IMG/VR virus record: IMGVR_UViG_3300031758_000022
Coordinates: 39,023 to 103,022 of that record
Source of the DNA: a virus
Length of the DNA stretch: 64,000 nucleotides
Strand: one strand, 5' to 3'
Shown: positions 19,956 through 39,302 of the stretch, one piece after another
Position numbering within the stretch: position 1 is the first letter of the stretch
Layout of the letters: the number at the start of each line of letters is the position of its first letter
Notes under the pieces: generated by a model
Database searches by the model: none
Seen by the model: only the letters and a program-made list of their open reading frames with translations
Told to the model about the DNA's origin: nothing
Translations under genes and position numbers: made by a program

Positions 19956-19971
19956 AAAATTTAATAATTTG

Positions 19972-20060
19972 TTCCCTATACAAGATTTGAACTTGTATCC
20001 TACCATAAGGTAGATGTTACTCTCAATGCCAGTATTTATTCCTGGTTACACCAATAGGGA
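19972..20060 (-). ncRNA. tRNA-like RNA with expanded D-loop and 4-nt anticodon loop
   Basis: Acceptor TCCCTAT/ATAGGGA; T-arm ACAAG-TTCAAAT-CTTGT; D-stem GTGT/ACAT with inserted CCAG..CTGG hairpin; anticodon arm CTACC-TTAT-GGTAG. Confidence 0.65.
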
Positions 20061-22795: not shown

Positions 22796-23524
22796 TCAAT
22801 AGTCTTTATAAGTTTTGTGTAGCAGATTCAAAAGATATCCCGTATCATGAGGAATTCTTTCAAAATCACTACTGCTCTTGAGAGCATTAATCATTCTGTT
22901 GTGATCATACTTGCTACCAAGAGATCTATAAACAGAACAAAAAGCTGTATGAAATTTATTACTATTGGTTTTAACAACAGAACTTGCTTCAATCAGATTT
23001 TTTGTAAGTACTTCAGAATCAGGCATATTTACTGTGAAATTACCATTTCTAATAGAAGTTAGACCTCTACCTGATGTAGCAGATCCTCCAAGAATGCTAG
23101 CAGAAATTGCTACAGAAAGACCATTTTTGATAAAATGTTCCTTAAGTCTAAAGTAATTCTCATTACCAAGACCACAATATGCATTAACATAATCTGTCAA
23201 TGTCCATTTTTGTTGAACATTATTCAGAGTAGCCATCATATCCACAATTGTTGATACAGAATCTGTTTCAACAACAATACAGTGTACTTTTTTAATACGC
23301 AATCTCTTAAGAGATTCAACCAAGTGCTGACCATCAACATTGTAATACTCAGCCTTACCAGTAATTGCTGTAGTATATGCAAGAACAGGAGTTCTTAATA
23401 TACCTACACGGGCAATTGATTTTACTAGTGCTTGGACATGTTTTTCATTTTTTGCTCTATTGAAAGTAAGCTCCTTGATTTTATCAACAGCTATTTCAAC
23501 AAATTTGTGCTTAGAAAATTCCAT
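22796..23524 (-). CDS. ParB/Srx-like N-terminal domain protein
   Basis: NR....HV..L..SI...G...P, VDGQH, LN..QQKW...DY. Confidence 0.65.
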   Translation of the reverse strand: MEFSKHKFVEIAVDKIKELTFNRAKNEKHVQALVKSIARVGILRTPVLAYTTAITGKAEYYNVDGQHLVESLKRLRIKKVHCIVVETDSVSTIVDMMATLNNVQQKWTLTDYVNAYCGLGNENYFRLKEHFIKNGLSVAISASILGGSATSGRGLTSIRNGNFTVNMPDSEVLTKNLIEASSVVKTNSNKFHTAFCSVYRSLGSKYDHNRMINALKSSSDFERIPHDTGYLLNLLHKTYKDY

Positions 23525-23565
23525 TTGTGTTTTACTTTTTGTGTTTTCTTAATTTAAATAGTAAT

Positions 23566-23602
23566 AAAAATAAGGGGACCGGATGTTTCACCGGTCCCTT
23601 AT
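23566..23602 (-). terminator. Intrinsic terminator closing the large ncRNA
   Basis: GGGACCGG/CCGGTCCC stem followed by a T-rich tail on the minus strand. Confidence 0.75.
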
Positions 23603-23615
23603 GGCATCACGTAGA

Positions 23616-24116
23616 GCTTGAGAGAAAGTATTAGAACACCCTAACATTATACATGTTAGGACATAAACAGTGCAATATTCTATACGAGTGTTAGGCATCT
23701 CAGCCAATTCCCTCCAATACTACAGTATACTTGTTCTCTACTGGTCACAAAGAGACCGTCCAATACCTCCATATAAAAATAGGAAAGGGTACACCTTCTT
23801 ACCGACACTTCATTTTTCCAGGAAAACCTGTCCAAAAACTTATTAATTAATACTTTAGAACATTACAGGATAAAACATCCCTTTACTGTTGTTAAACATT
23901 AATCAACATTACATACTTCCTATGTATTGTTCTTGCATAAAAAATCCACATCAAACTGCTACCTTTTCATTATGTTCTTCACGCCAGAGGTTTAGCAGCC
24001 TCAGCCCTAAACGTACAGAATAATATAATAACTACTAGGATATTAGCTGGCTTTTCTTATACTTTGCGTAGTAGGCATTTATGAGTGTAAGTCTTTCAAT
24101 ACACTGCCTCTCAAGC
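23616..24116 (-). ncRNA. Large (~500 nt) ornate structured ncRNA candidate
   Basis: No ORF of 60 aa or more; 9-bp terminal stem GCTTGAGAG/CTCTCAAGC; nested long-range stems, more than 10 local hairpins and a loop-loop complementarity. Confidence 0.65.
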
Positions 24117-24121
24117 AATTA

Positions 24122-24958
24122 TTATAACTCCAGAGTTTTTAACTTCTCTGGTATGTCAATGTTATAATGCATTTTAACATGTTTACAGCTTTCATGATAA
24201 TGAATAGTACTACAACCGCAGTTATGACCTTTTTCAAAATGTGTAGCAAAGTGTAAATCATAGTCTTTAGGGATATCACCCCATGCACCACCACATCCTT
24301 GACTTAAAACAAGAACCTTTTTTCCCTTAGGTACTAATTTTTTAATATGGCCTAAGTAGTAATTCAGATCATCTCCTGAAGGTAAACCTTTAGAACTGAT
24401 ACATAATCTACTGCCATAATAAATCTTAACACCTTTGATCTTTTTAGCTTCTTCAATCAATGTTCTATGAAACCCTTTATCAAGGCTATTGTAACCAACT
24501 GATTCATCTACAAATAGATAAAGCTCTTGTTTGGTTTCAACAGTCATCTTCTTTTCATATAAAGCAAGATGAGGTTCTGATAGTAATTTCTTGAACACAC
24601 GCGGATAATTAAGCTTATCTTCAATAAGAAATTCAACCTTTGATAGTCTGATTAATTCTCTTTTGATTAAAGCTCTTTTATTCTCTGCATCTACTTTGGT
24701 AGAATCCATTCCTTTACCTCTTGATTTGCTAGGATTTTCTTTACTCTTAGCAGGTTGAGGTTTTTTAACAGATTTTTTCTGAGAAGGATTCTCTTTTCTT
24801 AACCTAGTAGCTACGCTTTGTAGCACCTCCGGACTGAGATCATTAACAGAATCAGGAGACACATTATACTCTTTACCTTTATAAGTATGAGTAAAACTTT
24901 TACTTTCTGATTTCATATAATAATCATCAAAAAGTTGTTGTTGTCTAAAATGTGGCAT
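24122..24958 (-). CDS. Degenerate VWA-like protein
   Basis: KLNYPRV, LYLFVDESVG (DxSxG), VLVLSQG; adjacent to a MoxR ATPase. Confidence 0.5.
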   Translation of the reverse strand: MPHFRQQQLFDDYYMKSESKSFTHTYKGKEYNVSPDSVNDLSPEVLQSVATRLRKENPSQKKSVKKPQPAKSKENPSKSRGKGMDSTKVDAENKRALIKRELIRLSKVEFLIEDKLNYPRVFKKLLSEPHLALYEKKMTVETKQELYLFVDESVGYNSLDKGFHRTLIEEAKKIKGVKIYYGSRLCISSKGLPSGDDLNYYLGHIKKLVPKGKKVLVLSQGCGGAWGDIPKDYDLHFATHFEKGHNCGCSTIHYHESCKHVKMHYNIDIPEKLKTLEL

Positions 24959-25024: not shown

Positions 25025-25888
25025 TTAAAGCATTGAACCAACATACGCTTCAGTATTCATTTGATAAGTAGACCTTAAATAATGAATAAACTTTTTCTGG
25101 TCCTCTTCTTCTTGAGAAAACTTCCATAGTAAAGCTCTATACTTCAATTCTTGAGAAGCTTTTCTACTAATAGGACAAGATCCTATAAAGTACAACTCTT
25201 GAATTAAGTCAGCCACCTGATTTTGACTCGGTTTCTTTTCCACCTCAAGCTTTCTATAAGCCATAACTAGATCAATTAAGAAATTGAATTTGCTAGTATT
25301 ATATGGTACAGTAAGCATAAGCCTAACTTGTTCAATAAGTTCAGCTCTTTCTGGAAAATGGAATTCGCGAATCAAGGATATACGCCTGTCAAGAGCATCC
25401 TCTAGTTCTCTTCTCTTATTAGATGTAAGTACAATGAACAAATTGTTTTTGTTACCATGTATAACACCTGTAAGAGGATCATTTAGAAGACATTCTTGCA
25501 TATAAGACAAAAGAAAAGTATCCACAGAAGGTTTAGCCTTATCAATTTCATCAATCAATAATACAACCTTGTGTGTTTGAGACTTCTTTAATGCCTGTAG
25601 TAAGTAGCCATCTTTCATTGCATCACGGCCAGATGTGTTTACATCTGTCATTGCATCAACCAAAGTGCCTAAGTCCCAGTTGAATACAAGCTGCTCTGAT
25701 GATACACCGTCATAACACGGTGCAAAAATCAGCTCAGCCTGTAATTCAGAAGCTAGAAACTTAGCAAAGCTAGTTTTACCAGCACCTGGTTCACCAAACA
25801 AAAGCATACTAGGTACGCATACAGTAGGATTGTTCATCAAATACTTGATATAACTAATATCCTGCAGTTTACTTTGGCTAAGTATCAT
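25025..25888 (-). CDS. MoxR-family AAA+ ATPase (AAA_5)
   Basis: GEPGAGKT, LLIDEIDKA, LTSN..REL.DAL.RR. Confidence 0.85.
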   Translation of the reverse strand: MILSQSKLQDISYIKYLMNNPTVCVPSMLLFGEPGAGKTSFAKFLASELQAELIFAPCYDGVSSEQLVFNWDLGTLVDAMTDVNTSGRDAMKDGYLLQALKKSQTHKVVLLIDEIDKAKPSVDTFLLSYMQECLLNDPLTGVIHGNKNNLFIVLTSNKRRELEDALDRRISLIREFHFPERAELIEQVRLMLTVPYNTSKFNFLIDLVMAYRKLEVEKKPSQNQVADLIQELYFIGSCPISRKASQELKYRALLWKFSQEEEDQKKFIHYLRSTYQMNTEAYVGSML

Positions 25889-26511
25889 TACTTATCACCT
25901 CCTAATCTTTTCTTAAGACTAATTAAGGCTCTAAGTAACTCTTTAAGTTCTTCAGGAGCATCTTCAGGAATATCATCTTCAGATGATAATTCAGAAACAG
26001 ATTCTTTAGAAGTTCCGGCTTTGATTTTAATTTCATCTCCTCTTCCAAGAGAATCAAGATGCTTTTTCAATTCATCAAGATCTGAACTAATCTTAGAAGA
26101 AGCCATTCTTGTATGAACTCCTTCATACACAGAAACAAAACCAGCTACCATTAGAAAGAAATGAATCTCTGGATCATCCATATTAATAAGATGTTCAAGT
26201 ACCTTAGATCTAGCATAACTGCCTTCTTCAGGATTCTCTTCAGATTCTTTCTTGGCAAAATCATGAAAAATCTTTACTAATTTTTCCTCGGCCATTTCTT
26301 TAGCCCATTGTTTGGAATAGCCTATAGCCTTCCAAAAGTCTATCTCAGGAGTGTGGTCAAATGGCTTTCTCCCTTTAGAGAACTTTCCATTACCACCCTC
26401 ATCTGGCAGATTAGTTGCTGCCCACATAAACGCTTTGTTACTAATAAGATTAGTAGGAGCATTGCTCAAAGCCTCCATAACTTGATTTTTGTAGTTACTT
26501 CCTTGACTCAT
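25888..26511 (-). CDS. Hypothetical protein
   Basis: 207-aa ORF coupled to the ATPase gene. Confidence 0.6.
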   Translation of the reverse strand: MSQGSNYKNQVMEALSNAPTNLISNKAFMWAATNLPDEGGNGKFSKGRKPFDHTPEIDFWKAIGYSKQWAKEMAEEKLVKIFHDFAKKESEENPEEGSYARSKVLEHLINMDDPEIHFFLMVAGFVSVYEGVHTRMASSKISSDLDELKKHLDSLGRGDEIKIKAGTSKESVSELSSEDDIPEDAPEELKELLRALISLKKRLGGDK

Positions 26512-26521
26512 GTCTTTTTTA

Positions 26522-26704
26522 TTAAAGGATTAGTTTTTTGGACAAATTTTCAATTTCTTTTTCAATTCTCTGTCTGTCCTTGTCAGAGAGTTGAGTAGTT
26601 CCTGGAACTGTTTTTCCATCTACTTTTAAGGGTTTAGTCCCTTTTTGAAGTTGTGCTTGTAGTCTTGAAACTACATTTTTTCTGCGATTTGATATATCTG
26701 CCAT
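26522..26704 (-). CDS. Small basic protein
   Basis: RL.AQL.KGTK...LSDKD..RIEKEI..L. Confidence 0.55.
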   Translation of the reverse strand: MADISNRRKNVVSRLQAQLQKGTKPLKVDGKTVPGTTQLSDKDRQRIEKEIENLSKKLIL

Positions 26705-26925: not shown

Positions 26926-26949
26926 GGTTAAGGGATTAAACGTTAAATG

Positions 26950-27021
26950 CCCCTTTAGCAGGATTCGAACCTACACACTCTGTTTAAAAACAGTGCTCTA
27001 ACCAGTTGGAGCTATAAAGGG
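26950..27021 (-). tRNA. tRNA-like gene with a 3-nt-short anticodon arm (Lys-like, undetermined)
   Basis: Acceptor CCCTTTA/TAAAGGG; D-arm GCTC-CAACTGGTTA-GAGC; T-arm GTAGG-TTCGAAT-CCTGC; anticodon arm only 14 nt, CTGTT-TTTA-AACAG. Confidence 0.75.
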
Positions 27022-27506: not shown

Positions 27507-27890
27507 TTATTTAAAGTATTGGCTGTATACTAAATTAGTATTTTCTTCAGCCCATGTAACTATTTCTTCTTCCTTGTTGGTCACATCCCAATCATAGATG
27601 AGCAAGGACATATGAGCCATTTCGTGATTAATCAGGGTAATATCTCTATAGTCACCTTTAAGAGCAGACTTATTGATAAATATAAAAGGCAGCGGTGTTT
27701 TAGAAAGGGTACTATCTCTAGGATCATAGTTGCAAAAGCCATCTATGTATGTACCACCTTCAGCAATGCGGCAGATACACTTGTCTTTACTGACACCGTG
27801 CATCTCCTGGACATTGTAATAATCAAACAAATCTACAGCATTGTTACCAATGAGTAGTACAAACTGAGCATAATAGATAATCTGCATCAT
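27507..27890 (-). CDS. HExxH zinc-metallopeptidase-like protein
   Basis: FIFIN...LINHEMAH...EEE. Confidence 0.6.
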   Translation of the reverse strand: MMQIIYYAQFVLLIGNNAVDLFDYYNVQEMHGVSKDKCICRIAEGGTYIDGFCNYDPRDSTLSKTPLPFIFINKSALKGDYRDITLINHEMAHMSLLIYDWDVTNKEEEIVTWAEENTNLVYSQYFK

Positions 27891-27913
27891 GTAAGTTTTA
27901 AGTTAATTACGGT

Positions 27914-28053
27914 TTATCCCTCTGCACTCAGTTGTAATAGCATTCAAACTGTATTTCTACAGAACTCAAGCGTATATCAGGATTAGAGTTTTTATTTCTT
28001 CCTATCTATTACAACTGCTATCCCTTGGGAAGATAGTTATGGTGCATTAATAA
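27914..28053 (-). ncRNA. Twister self-cleaving ribozyme (P1 type, enlarged P5)
   Basis: TTAT-TAA-TGCA-CC-ATAA-CTATC-TTCCCAAGG-GATAG-[12-bp P5 plus insert]-AG-TGCA-GA-GGG-ATAA: P1, UAA, P2, P4 and both pseudoknots present. Confidence 0.8.
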
Positions 28054-28197
28054 TGAGGGTTATCTGAACACCCACAAACGCCAGCATCTTACTGGATAGT
28101 TATTTACAATATTTAATGTGCAGTGTAATAACAAAAGGCACAAGTATTCTCTATACTCACAGATATCCCGCCTGTGTATATTATTAACCCCCTACTA

Positions 28198-28310
28198 TAT
28201 AAGAGAGAGAGAGAGGATAAGAATAATACAAAGAGAGGATAAGAAGAAACGTAGTAGCTATGTAGTTAAAAGAGAGGAATAGAGAAAAAAGTAAGTTGAG
28301 GTAGAGTATA
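28198..28310. repeat. Purine-rich tract with AGAGAGGATAAGAA direct repeats
   Basis: Repeat copies at 28210 and 28232, (GA)n run, extreme strand skew. Confidence 0.5.
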
Positions 28311-38930: not shown

Positions 38931-39302
38931 ATGGCAATTGTAAATCAAGTACAGAAAAAAATAAGAATGGAAGTCTGGGATATTACTAAGTTCCAGCTGG
39001 CTATTCATTGTCATCTACATGACATATCTATTTCTAGCCTTGATCTTAATTGTTTAACTTTATTAGCCCTTTACGGAGAGAAAGAACTTACAGAGTTTTG
39101 TGAGGCTGCTGTTGAAAAGAAAATTTTCGGCAGCAGCCAATCTGTAAGGAATGCTCTAGCTAAAGCAGAAAAAAGAAAGCTTATTGTAAAACAGGGAAGG
39201 AGTAAGAAGAAGATCCAGATTAATCCTGAGATAAGGATTCAAACCAATGGTAACATACTCCTTGACTATAAAATTGTAAGAATTGAATCCAAAAAAGATT
39301 AA
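38931..39302 (+). CDS. Putative winged-helix DNA-binding protein
   Basis: S.QSVRNAL.KAEKR.LIVK pattern. Confidence 0.55.
   Translation: MAIVNQVQKKIRMEVWDITKFQLAIHCHLHDISISSLDLNCLTLLALYGEKELTEFCEAAVEKKIFGSSQSVRNALAKAEKRKLIVKQGRSKKKIQINPEIRIQTNGNILLDYKIVRIESKKD

Follow-up and report, generated by a model that had tools for sequence, protein, structure and literature searches.

A conserved, apparently undescribed structured RNA behind an AAA+ ATPase gene module in freshwater relatives of crAss-like phages

We analyzed a 64,000-nucleotide (nt) stretch of viral DNA (the window; positions 39,023 to 103,022 of the IMG/VR virus record IMGVR_UViG_3300031758_000022), in which an original prediction made from the letters alone had singled out positions 23616 to 24116 as a large, ornate noncoding RNA. 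At this locus, a conserved, strand-specific, multidomain RNA structure stands at the 3′ end of a gene module that encodes an AAA+ ATPase and a 278-amino-acid (aa) protein, and it is followed by its own terminator. We conclude, with a probability of roughly 0.8, that the structure is an autonomously folding noncoding RNA of about 500 nt, and that it represents an apparently undescribed family carried by freshwater relatives of crAss-like phages. A stable structural or ribonucleoprotein (RNP) role is a far more tentative proposal, which we rate as less likely than not.

Architecture and covariation of the RNA

The genes surrounding the RNA locus lie on the minus strand, and coordinates that descend below follow that strand from 5′ to 3′. 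The RNA falls in a 597-nt gap poor in open reading frames (ORFs) (23525-24121), between the 278-aa gene (24958-24122) and a ParB-like gene (23524-22796). As predicted, no ORF of notable size occurs in this gap of about 600 nt (the two longest reach 58 and 51 aa), and none is conserved across 21 homologs, including the ORFs listed in some of the other loci. The structured RNA proper, measured from P1 to P1, spans 501 nt of the minus strand (23616..24116). It begins 5 nt past the TAA stop codon (24124-24122) of the 278-aa gene, as had been proposed, and ends about 17 nt before an intrinsic terminator of its own (23563..23598), which consists of a minus-strand hairpin (stem 23598-23575) and a U-run. 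The spacer between them (23599..23615) carries a conserved GUGAUG (23610-23605). The terminator hairpin, also part of the original prediction, is kept in homologs, and its stem varies in sequence.

The RNA is organized around a three-way junction of P1, P2, and P5 with linkers of 1, 1, and 3 nt. P1 joins the ends of the RNA through 9 perfect pairs between GCUUGAGAG (24116-24108) and CUCUCAAGC (23624-23616); this end pairing had been foreseen, and it covaries across clades. P2 (24107-24098 with 23731-23722) closes domain I, a long irregular stack of P2, P3, and P4 with lineage-specific arms on top. The 5′ strand of P3 (CAUAAA, GCC; 24083-24074) pairs with 23757-23746, corresponding to columns 45-56 with 455-467 of alignment A2, and the 5′ strand of P4 (GUAUAAGAAAAG, 24062-24051) pairs with 23782-23771. 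The nearly invariant block AAUGCCUACUACGCAAAG (within 24062..24083) is present in every clade, including that of locus L198 described below, and a second invariant block, GGUAUUGGACGGUCUCUUU, shares the segment 23746..23782 with the 3′ strands of P4 and P3. Hairpin Hb (GUUUAG/CUAAAC; 24012-24007 with 23995-23990) covaries. Domain II, closed by P5 (GUAUUGGA, 23720-23713, with UCUAAUAC, 23635-23628), contains three elements: hairpin P6 (GGC-UGAGAU-GCC; 23705-23694), with a conserved U-GNRA-U loop that reads UGAAAU in other clades; a strand of some 25 nt that hardly varies and is unpaired in the consensus, with the nearly invariant UAGAAUAUUGCACU (23682-23669) unpaired in the all-clade consensus; and the conserved 3′ hairpin P7 with its outer stem (CCUAACAU/AUGUUAGG; 23664-23636). 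The hairpin originally proposed between CCTAACAT and ATGTTAGG (23660-23653 with 23647-23640) belongs to P7 and is both conserved and covarying.

In MAFFT alignments, three nearly invariant unpaired blocks (AAAUGCCUACUACGCGAAG, GGUAUUGGACGGUCUCUUUAC, and UUAGAAUAUUGCACUAUGUGCUUGG) stand between the helices, and the stretches that separate them vary in sequence with complementarity retained. Across the family, the length from P1 to P1 ranges from about 460 to 590 nt, and extra arms are placed differently by lineage: the clade of this phage expands domain I, and in the largest clade domain II is extended by an insert of about 170 nt, which this phage lacks and in which GAG-rich units such as GAGUGAUCAGUGCGAGUGGUCAGUGCGGAGG recur (L012:3700-3930, L014, L025, and L031).

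Covariation had been named in the original prediction as a check on the RNA, and covarying pairs were found in 21 distinct homologs. The RNAalifold consensus built on these sequences (alignment A2) comprises 71 pairs in 13 helices. Bases at the paired positions were complementary in 93.9% of cells (about 43%, range 36 to 46%, with slid partners), double-change pairs numbered 45 (16 to 20 with slid partners), and the covariation score was 0.423 (0.07 to 0.11 with slid partners); none of 500 shuffles reached the observed values. These values are biased toward the structure, since they were counted on the very alignment that had yielded it. Three checks are independent of that bias: a blind column scan, an anchored comparison of P4, and locus L198.

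The blind scan of all column pairs ranked P2, P1, P5, and P3 first. P2 scored highest (A2 columns 21-31 with 481-491; 93% paired, double changes in 8 of 11 pairs), and P5 was paired in 100% of cases (columns 493-500 with 761-768; double changes in 6 of 8 pairs). When P4 was anchored on the invariant blocks, with the alignment set aside, almost every homolog yielded 10 to 12 pairs, with 8 of 12 in L005 (the rows of L002 and L009 were mis-anchored in this comparison). The P4 sequences themselves are unrelated between homologs (GUAUGUUGAUUA/UAAUUGAUAUAC, AGUUCUGCCU/GGGUAGAAUU, and GUAUAAGAAAAG/CUAUUUUUAUAU). P1 likewise takes the forms UUUACAAG/CUUGUAAA, UUUGUAAG/CUUACAAA, CUAAUGA/UUAUUAG, and UUCAAAG/CUUUGAA in other clades and GGUUUGGAUC/GGUCCAAACU in L198; its counts understate pairing, since the rows of the window and of its relative L007 are shifted by two columns in A2 at this helix. 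Hb appears elsewhere as GUUGUG/CACAAC (clade B), CUAUGU/ACAUAG (L005), and GUUUACU/GGUAAAC (L198).

Locus L198 lies on a 127-kb IMG/VR contig that was recovered by an ATPase scan; identity to the proteins of the window is 65% for the ATPase and 38% for the homolog of the 278-aa protein. The RNA of this locus was missed both by nhmmer and by R1, a covariance model of the 3′ 80 nt of the RNA. In the 542-nt gap that follows the gene (L198:5261-5835), none of the three invariant blocks is nevertheless missing, and GUGAU and a terminator are also present. In an out-of-sample test, the unconstrained minimum-energy fold of this gap contained P1, P2, P3, Hb, P5, P6 with a UGAAAU loop, P7, and the terminator.

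The strand of the RNA is fixed by G-U pairs with little or no variation (for example, in 20, 21, and 19 of 21 sequences), since these would be C-A mismatches on the opposite strand. The minus-strand terminator agrees with this assignment. Between the window and L007, pairing is preserved at 13 of the 15 differences that fall on predicted paired positions.

Some local features of the original prediction did not hold as conserved structure. The strands of the proposed GGTC/GACC hairpin belong to the conserved P3, and the GAGG-CTGCTAAA-CCTC hairpin, with its pseudoknot to TAGCAG, clashes with the covarying Hb; moreover, clade B lacks the TAGCAG segment. A proposed domain-closing helix (23625-23633 with 23848-23856) is available to this phage and to L007 (95% identical), whereas family-wide the 23625-23633 side pairs with 23720-23713 as P5.

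Two alternative pairings were observed. In this phage and L007, 23633-23625 (the P5 3′ strand) can form 9 to 10 pairs with AAAGUAUUA (23856-23848), 130 nt upstream. Family-wide, UCUCUUU of an invariant block is complementary to AGAGGGA at the start of domain II (A2 columns 457-463 with 498-504; 95% paired). A conformational switch based on these pairings is possible.

Range of the family and comparison with known RNAs

To delimit the family, we started from the 278-aa protein, which has 29 relatives in a large protein collection (89% to 31% identity). These were aligned (A1), and IMG/VR and a metagenome collection were then scanned, yielding 5 and 26 loci, respectively, the latter mostly from lake metagenomes. 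A search by nhmmer with the window gap alone found a homologous stretch right after the homolog of the 278-aa gene, with an E value of 1.6e-147 in L007; values in a second clade were near 1e-25, and all others were 1e-5 or weaker. The RNA profile matched 31 of 31 loci, including L030, which had been left out of profile building. In most loci with enough downstream sequence, 540 to 740 nt without an ORF of at least 70 aa follow the 278-aa gene. The homologs range from 95% identity to barely alignable with one common fold.

Searches further afield returned no additional members. The gap gave no blastn match to 50,697 phage records, and tblastn of the ATPase against the same records gave remote P-loop matches only. 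Two pattern scans of IMG/VR recovered no contigs beyond those known, and a pattern scan of viral contigs found none for P0029, the most distant protein relative (31% identity). In a genome collection, a pattern scan marked at least 120 places, all of them chance by nhmmer. Model R1 detected a single copy in the record of the phage itself; across 151 genomes from the class to which a Flavobacteriaceae metagenome-assembled genome belongs it detected none, in a search run without a positive control. Since R1 and nhmmer both miss the true copy in L198, such negative searches say little about the real range of the family, which may be much wider than they reveal. All members sampled so far belong to freshwater phages related to the crAss-like group.

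Two more distant loci also carry relatives of the module. In L205 (4590-5100) and L206 (4611-5140), where the ATPase is about 60% and the 278-aa protein about 34% identical, the gene is followed by about 430 nt free of ORFs, a terminator-like hairpin, and then a long-arm tRNA. The family blocks are not recognizable in this stretch, which may hold a replaced RNA or one diverged beyond recognition.

No catalogued RNA family was matched by the element. Among the 4,227 covariance models of Rfam 15, none matched the region at the gathering threshold, the only match being a tRNA elsewhere; the original prediction had made novelty depend on this search. With E values up to 10, positions 23400-24300 gave only chance-level matches (E = 0.1 to 10) to unrelated eukaryotic small nucleolar RNA and long noncoding RNA models, far under their gathering scores, and nine homolog loci gave nothing at E values up to 0.5. 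No Rfam 15 match was obtained for RNase P RNA, transfer-messenger RNA (tmRNA), group I and II introns, OLE, HEARO, raiA, 6S, or riboswitches, and ARAGORN found no tmRNA, in line with the reported lack of tmRNA, RNase P, and intron motifs. ROOL (RF03087; gathering threshold, 99.1 bits) was detected neither on 23400-24300 (E up to 10) nor in the 103-kb record or the nine homolog loci (E up to 0.5), although the whole-record search had no positive control and control genomes were also blank. GOLLD (RF02032; gathering threshold, 150 bits) was not detected on the region, and its sole match to the genome was a chance match of 7.7 bits elsewhere. In the literature searched, we found no description of the RNA, leaving aside the unnamed entries among the 10,006 viral candidate structured RNAs that Fremin et al. 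2023 predicted from IMG/VR (PMC10690425). The RNA is not mentioned in the 2026 Minerva preprint.

The element has the general characters of ornate phage RNAs: it is longer than 400 nt (501 nt), noncoding, built of covarying helices (71 pairs, 45 with double changes), phage encoded (terminase, portal, and head genes), and near tRNA genes. ROOL is a phage-encoded noncoding RNA of about 500 to 650 nt, often found near tRNA genes, with covarying helices at multiway junctions and of unknown function (PMC12286853). The present RNA resembles it in size, phage origin, tRNA proximity, noncoding character, and many helices at multiway junctions. It differs in conserved sequences and helix layout, in its strict tie to one protein module, and in its occurrence only in freshwater crAss-like relatives; ROOL forms an octameric cage, a kind of assembly that for this RNA is only a possibility. 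GOLLD, a large ornate RNA of phages and prophages that was first seen in lake metagenomes, is often near tRNAs and is likewise of unknown function (PMC12286853). Compared with GOLLD (>800 nt), the present RNA is smaller (about 460 to 590 nt from P1 to P1) and has another architecture. Because the ROOL and GOLLD models are unmatched and the conserved sequences differ, we consider this a separate family, whose resemblance to ROOL and GOLLD would be one of kind only. The core of the original prediction, a large ornate noncoding RNA that could belong to a new class, is supported by the covariation, the synteny at 31 of 31 loci, L198, the Rfam results, and a metatranscriptome contig described below; of its two options, membership in the ROOL/GOLLD class is rejected.

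Other RNAs offer partial parallels. OLE, of about 600 nt, is a highly conserved structured RNA that works as an RNP (PMC9723947). It is cellular and belongs to extremophilic Bacillota, whereas the present RNA is phage borne, gives no sequence or model match to OLE, and has unrelated candidate partner proteins. The genes of OLE partner proteins (Oap) adjoin the OLE RNA gene, and the two systems are alike in that a large structured RNA lies beside candidate partner-protein genes, making OLE a model for the putative link to the AAA+/VWA-like pair. Ro60 (Rsr) and its Y RNAs, including phage-encoded Ro60, provide a case of a VWA-type protein encoded beside a structured noncoding RNA. However, Y RNAs are about 100 to 200 nt long with a tRNA-like module, and no Y RNA match was obtained in Rfam; Ro60 binds RNA through its TROVE ring, and the 278-aa protein gave no TROVE match (by Pfam or among its fold matches, which cover only residues 96-278). 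The pRNA of phage phi29 is a phage-encoded structured RNA that multimerizes and works with an ATPase. Any likeness to it would be a functional analogy only: pRNA is about 170 nt long and serves a packaging motor, while the ATPase next to the present RNA is of the MoxR/AAA_5 type and not a terminase.

Genomic setting and the upstream gene module

Among the genes of the 103-kb source record are those for a large terminase, a portal, and a head protein. With about 25% identity to its counterparts in crAss-like, Flavobacterium, and Cellulophaga phages, the terminase marks this uncultured phage as distantly related to the crAss-like group; by the same kinship, its host would probably be a freshwater member of the Bacteroidota. 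Near-identical DNA was present in freshwater metagenomes, including those of lakes, from 16 studies. The RNA locus lies among replication-type genes in the early/middle gene block, and translation table 11 leaves the window's late genes intact. The G+C content of the RNA region is the same as that of its flanks, and no tandem repeats were found in it.

Upstream of the RNA, the module order is constant in the homolog loci: a 60-aa gene (26522-26704), a 207-aa gene (25888-26511), the ATPase gene (287 aa; 25025..25888), and the 278-aa gene (24122..24958), all on the minus strand in this phage, with the last always immediately 5′ of the RNA. The ATPase is 59 to 77% identical across the family; in the synteny comparison of homolog loci it is 75 to 77% identical and the 278-aa protein about 50%. 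In contrast, the gene 3′ of the RNA differs from phage to phage. Relative to L007, the 207-aa gene, the ATPase gene, the 278-aa gene, and the RNA share 93 to 96% DNA identity, compared with 58% for the ParB-like gene past the terminator. This drop indicates a recombination (mosaic) boundary directly behind the terminator, at about window position 23560.

The assignment of the 287-aa protein to AAA_5 (MoxR/dynein related) is solid: PF07728 matched with an E value of 1e-13 and 51.9 bits against a Pfam cut-off of 22, and the best PDB sequence matches were Midasin and Clp-type AAA modules. PADLOC and NCBIfam returned generic P-loop matches only for this protein (IetA; MadB far under its cut-off) and nothing for the remaining module genes; a comparison of the 207-aa protein with ESM Atlas brought no useful lead. 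The 278-aa protein had no Pfam, PHROG, or NCBIfam profile match. Its AlphaFold2 model (pLDDT, 83) has a C-terminal alpha/beta domain, and fold matches to the model are confined to residues 96-278. The best matches to residues 90-278 of the model were VWA domains, namely those of NorD from the NorQ-NorD complex (Z = 7.3), TFIIH p44 (6.9), von Willebrand factor A1 (6.5), and Ro60 (6.5; Thermus phage phiLo Ro60, 6.5; Deinococcus Rsr, 6.4), all below the Z = 8 level at which a match is regarded as distinctive. A weak Foldseek match to VWA (E = 7e-3) and an ESM Atlas lead to DUF2201 (VWA-like; 0.88) point in the same direction. The sequence departs from the DxSxS motif of the metal ion-dependent adhesion site (MIDAS), the consensus at the expected place being D-E-S-V-G. 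Calling the two proteins a MoxR/VWA-like pair is thus plausible, with only the ATPase half firmly established.

A second VWA-type protein is encoded in the same phage (window 12029-13381), with a C terminus that matches the PHROG family of cobaltochelatase CobT (E = 9e-7). A 356-aa gene adjoins it, and the phage may carry two ATPase/VWA-like pairs.

Small parts of a 3.1-kb stretch around the RNA occur in four metatranscriptome runs from three studies. Contigs on the RNA cover 23655-23848, 23746-23954, 23754-23945, and 23942-24093, with 0 to 4 mismatches (that of X20 also has 3 gaps), and another (24037-24263) runs from the last part of the 278-aa gene into the RNA. The bridging contig fits cotranscription of the gene and the RNA. 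This agrees with the proposed cotranscription with a MoxR/VWA pair, in which the ATPase assignment is firm and the VWA label comes from weak fold matches. The flanking genes had no high-identity contig in the four runs; because the uncovered part proves nothing, we did not use this as evidence that the RNA exceeds the mRNA.

Genes similar to tRNA genes lie 2.8 and 3.5 kb from the RNA in the window, and a canonical tRNA lies about 0.55 to 2.2 kb downstream of the RNA in homolog loci. One of the tRNA-like genes in the window (26949-27021) scored 47.8 bits with the Rfam tRNA model, and its anticodon was left unassigned by ARAGORN (tRNA-???); the other (19971-20060; 90 nt) was called tRNA-Leu(gag). 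No Rfam match to twister was obtained in window positions 27800-28200, at the gathering threshold or at E values up to 1.

Alternative explanations and possible function

Several observations weigh against an autonomous RNA with a stable role. The RNA-library evidence for a putative discrete RNA species consists of assembled contigs of low depth (2 to 4×) that carry no strand information, and DNA carry-over is possible. Folding energy adds little: the whole gap with its terminator has z scores of −3.1 (minus strand) and −2.8 (plus strand), and P1-to-P1 values in seven homologs range from −1.7 to −6.5 (about −2 to −3 for most members). Since the antisense strand also scores negative, energy alone says little, and the expectation that the RNA would fold better than shuffled sequences is borne out only modestly. 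The lineage-specific arms in this phage depend on one close relative and on energy prediction. Finally, the sampled family is phylogenetically narrow. With all members from related phages, the constant adjacency to the AAA+/VWA module may reflect inherited synteny rather than functional coupling.

Among the alternatives, a cis-acting 3′ untranslated region fares best, although we regard it as unlikely. The folded block would then only shield the module mRNA from 3′-to-5′ decay or direct its processing, with no function in trans. Such a role would suit an RNA that starts 5 nt after the last stop codon, is always found with the same module, is bridged to the upstream gene by an RNA-library contig, and has no convincing promoter before it (promoter-like matches were at chance, with 6 found and 4.5 expected). 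However, the terminator hairpin alone would be enough as a decay block. A conserved core of about 250 nt with three nearly invariant unpaired blocks exceeds what such a role would call for, and this core is kept where the flanking protein is only 38 to 50% identical.

Somewhat less probable again, in our view, is a role in catalysis or ligand binding, as a ribozyme for instance, with the invariant unpaired blocks as active site or pocket. Large size and strongly conserved single-stranded nucleotides amid covarying helices are typical of catalytic RNAs and riboswitch cores, and a GNRA-type loop is conserved in P6; against this, Rfam gave no ribozyme, intron, or riboswitch match, and no cleavage or ligation product is visible in the data at hand. 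A riboswitch in particular is disfavored by a terminator that has no alternative pairing with P1 and by downstream genes that differ between phages.

The two remaining alternatives are effectively excluded. A DNA-level element with incidental structure, such as a replication origin, a packaging signal, or a partition site for the ParB-like gene that follows in this phage, would fit a region among replication-type genes, but the downstream gene varies while the RNA stays with the upstream module, repeats are absent, the terminator is kept at the end, and compensatory changes with strand-specific G-U pairs indicate selection on single-stranded RNA. Least likely of all is a decayed or unrecognized protein gene: crAss-like phages are known for stop-codon recoding, yet no frame is conserved in the 21 homologs, no long frame opens when TGA is read as W (code 4) or TAG as Q, the late genes of the window need no recoding, and conservation tracks helices and not codons.

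For the noncoding RNA that we favor, the functional part of the explanation is tentative, and we hold it much less firmly than the existence of the RNA itself. The RNA would be made as the 3′ end of the module transcript, and P1 and the terminator would protect its ends, so that a stable species could accumulate. It may then play a structural or scaffolding role in infection, either as an RNA-only assembly or as an RNP. The AAA+/VWA-like pair would be its likeliest partner or remodeler, and the invariant unpaired blocks could be contact or active sites. More speculatively, and in our view rather doubtful, the RNA might be the RNA subunit of a new phage RNP that is loaded, remodeled, or used by the MoxR-type AAA+ protein and the VWA/MIDAS-like protein, a viral counterpart of Midasin-type AAA/MIDAS machines, which remodel RNA-protein particles; or it might be an RNA-only cage like those of ROOL and GOLLD with dedicated protein partners. 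If true, either version would mean an ornate RNA of a new class with a new fold, whose protein partners would make its function tractable.

To our knowledge, phage or bacterial RNAs of more than 400 nt with extensive covariation are rare, comprising OLE, GOLLD, ROOL, HEARO, raiA, and a few others. The present RNA has no detectable relation to any of these and would form a new class. Several large ornate RNAs have proved to have unprecedented three-dimensional or quaternary structures (PMC12286853). The spread of sequences over one fold makes this family suited to structure determination and covariation-guided modeling, and the constant link to one protein module, unlike the situation of ROOL and GOLLD, offers a direct experimental route to its function.

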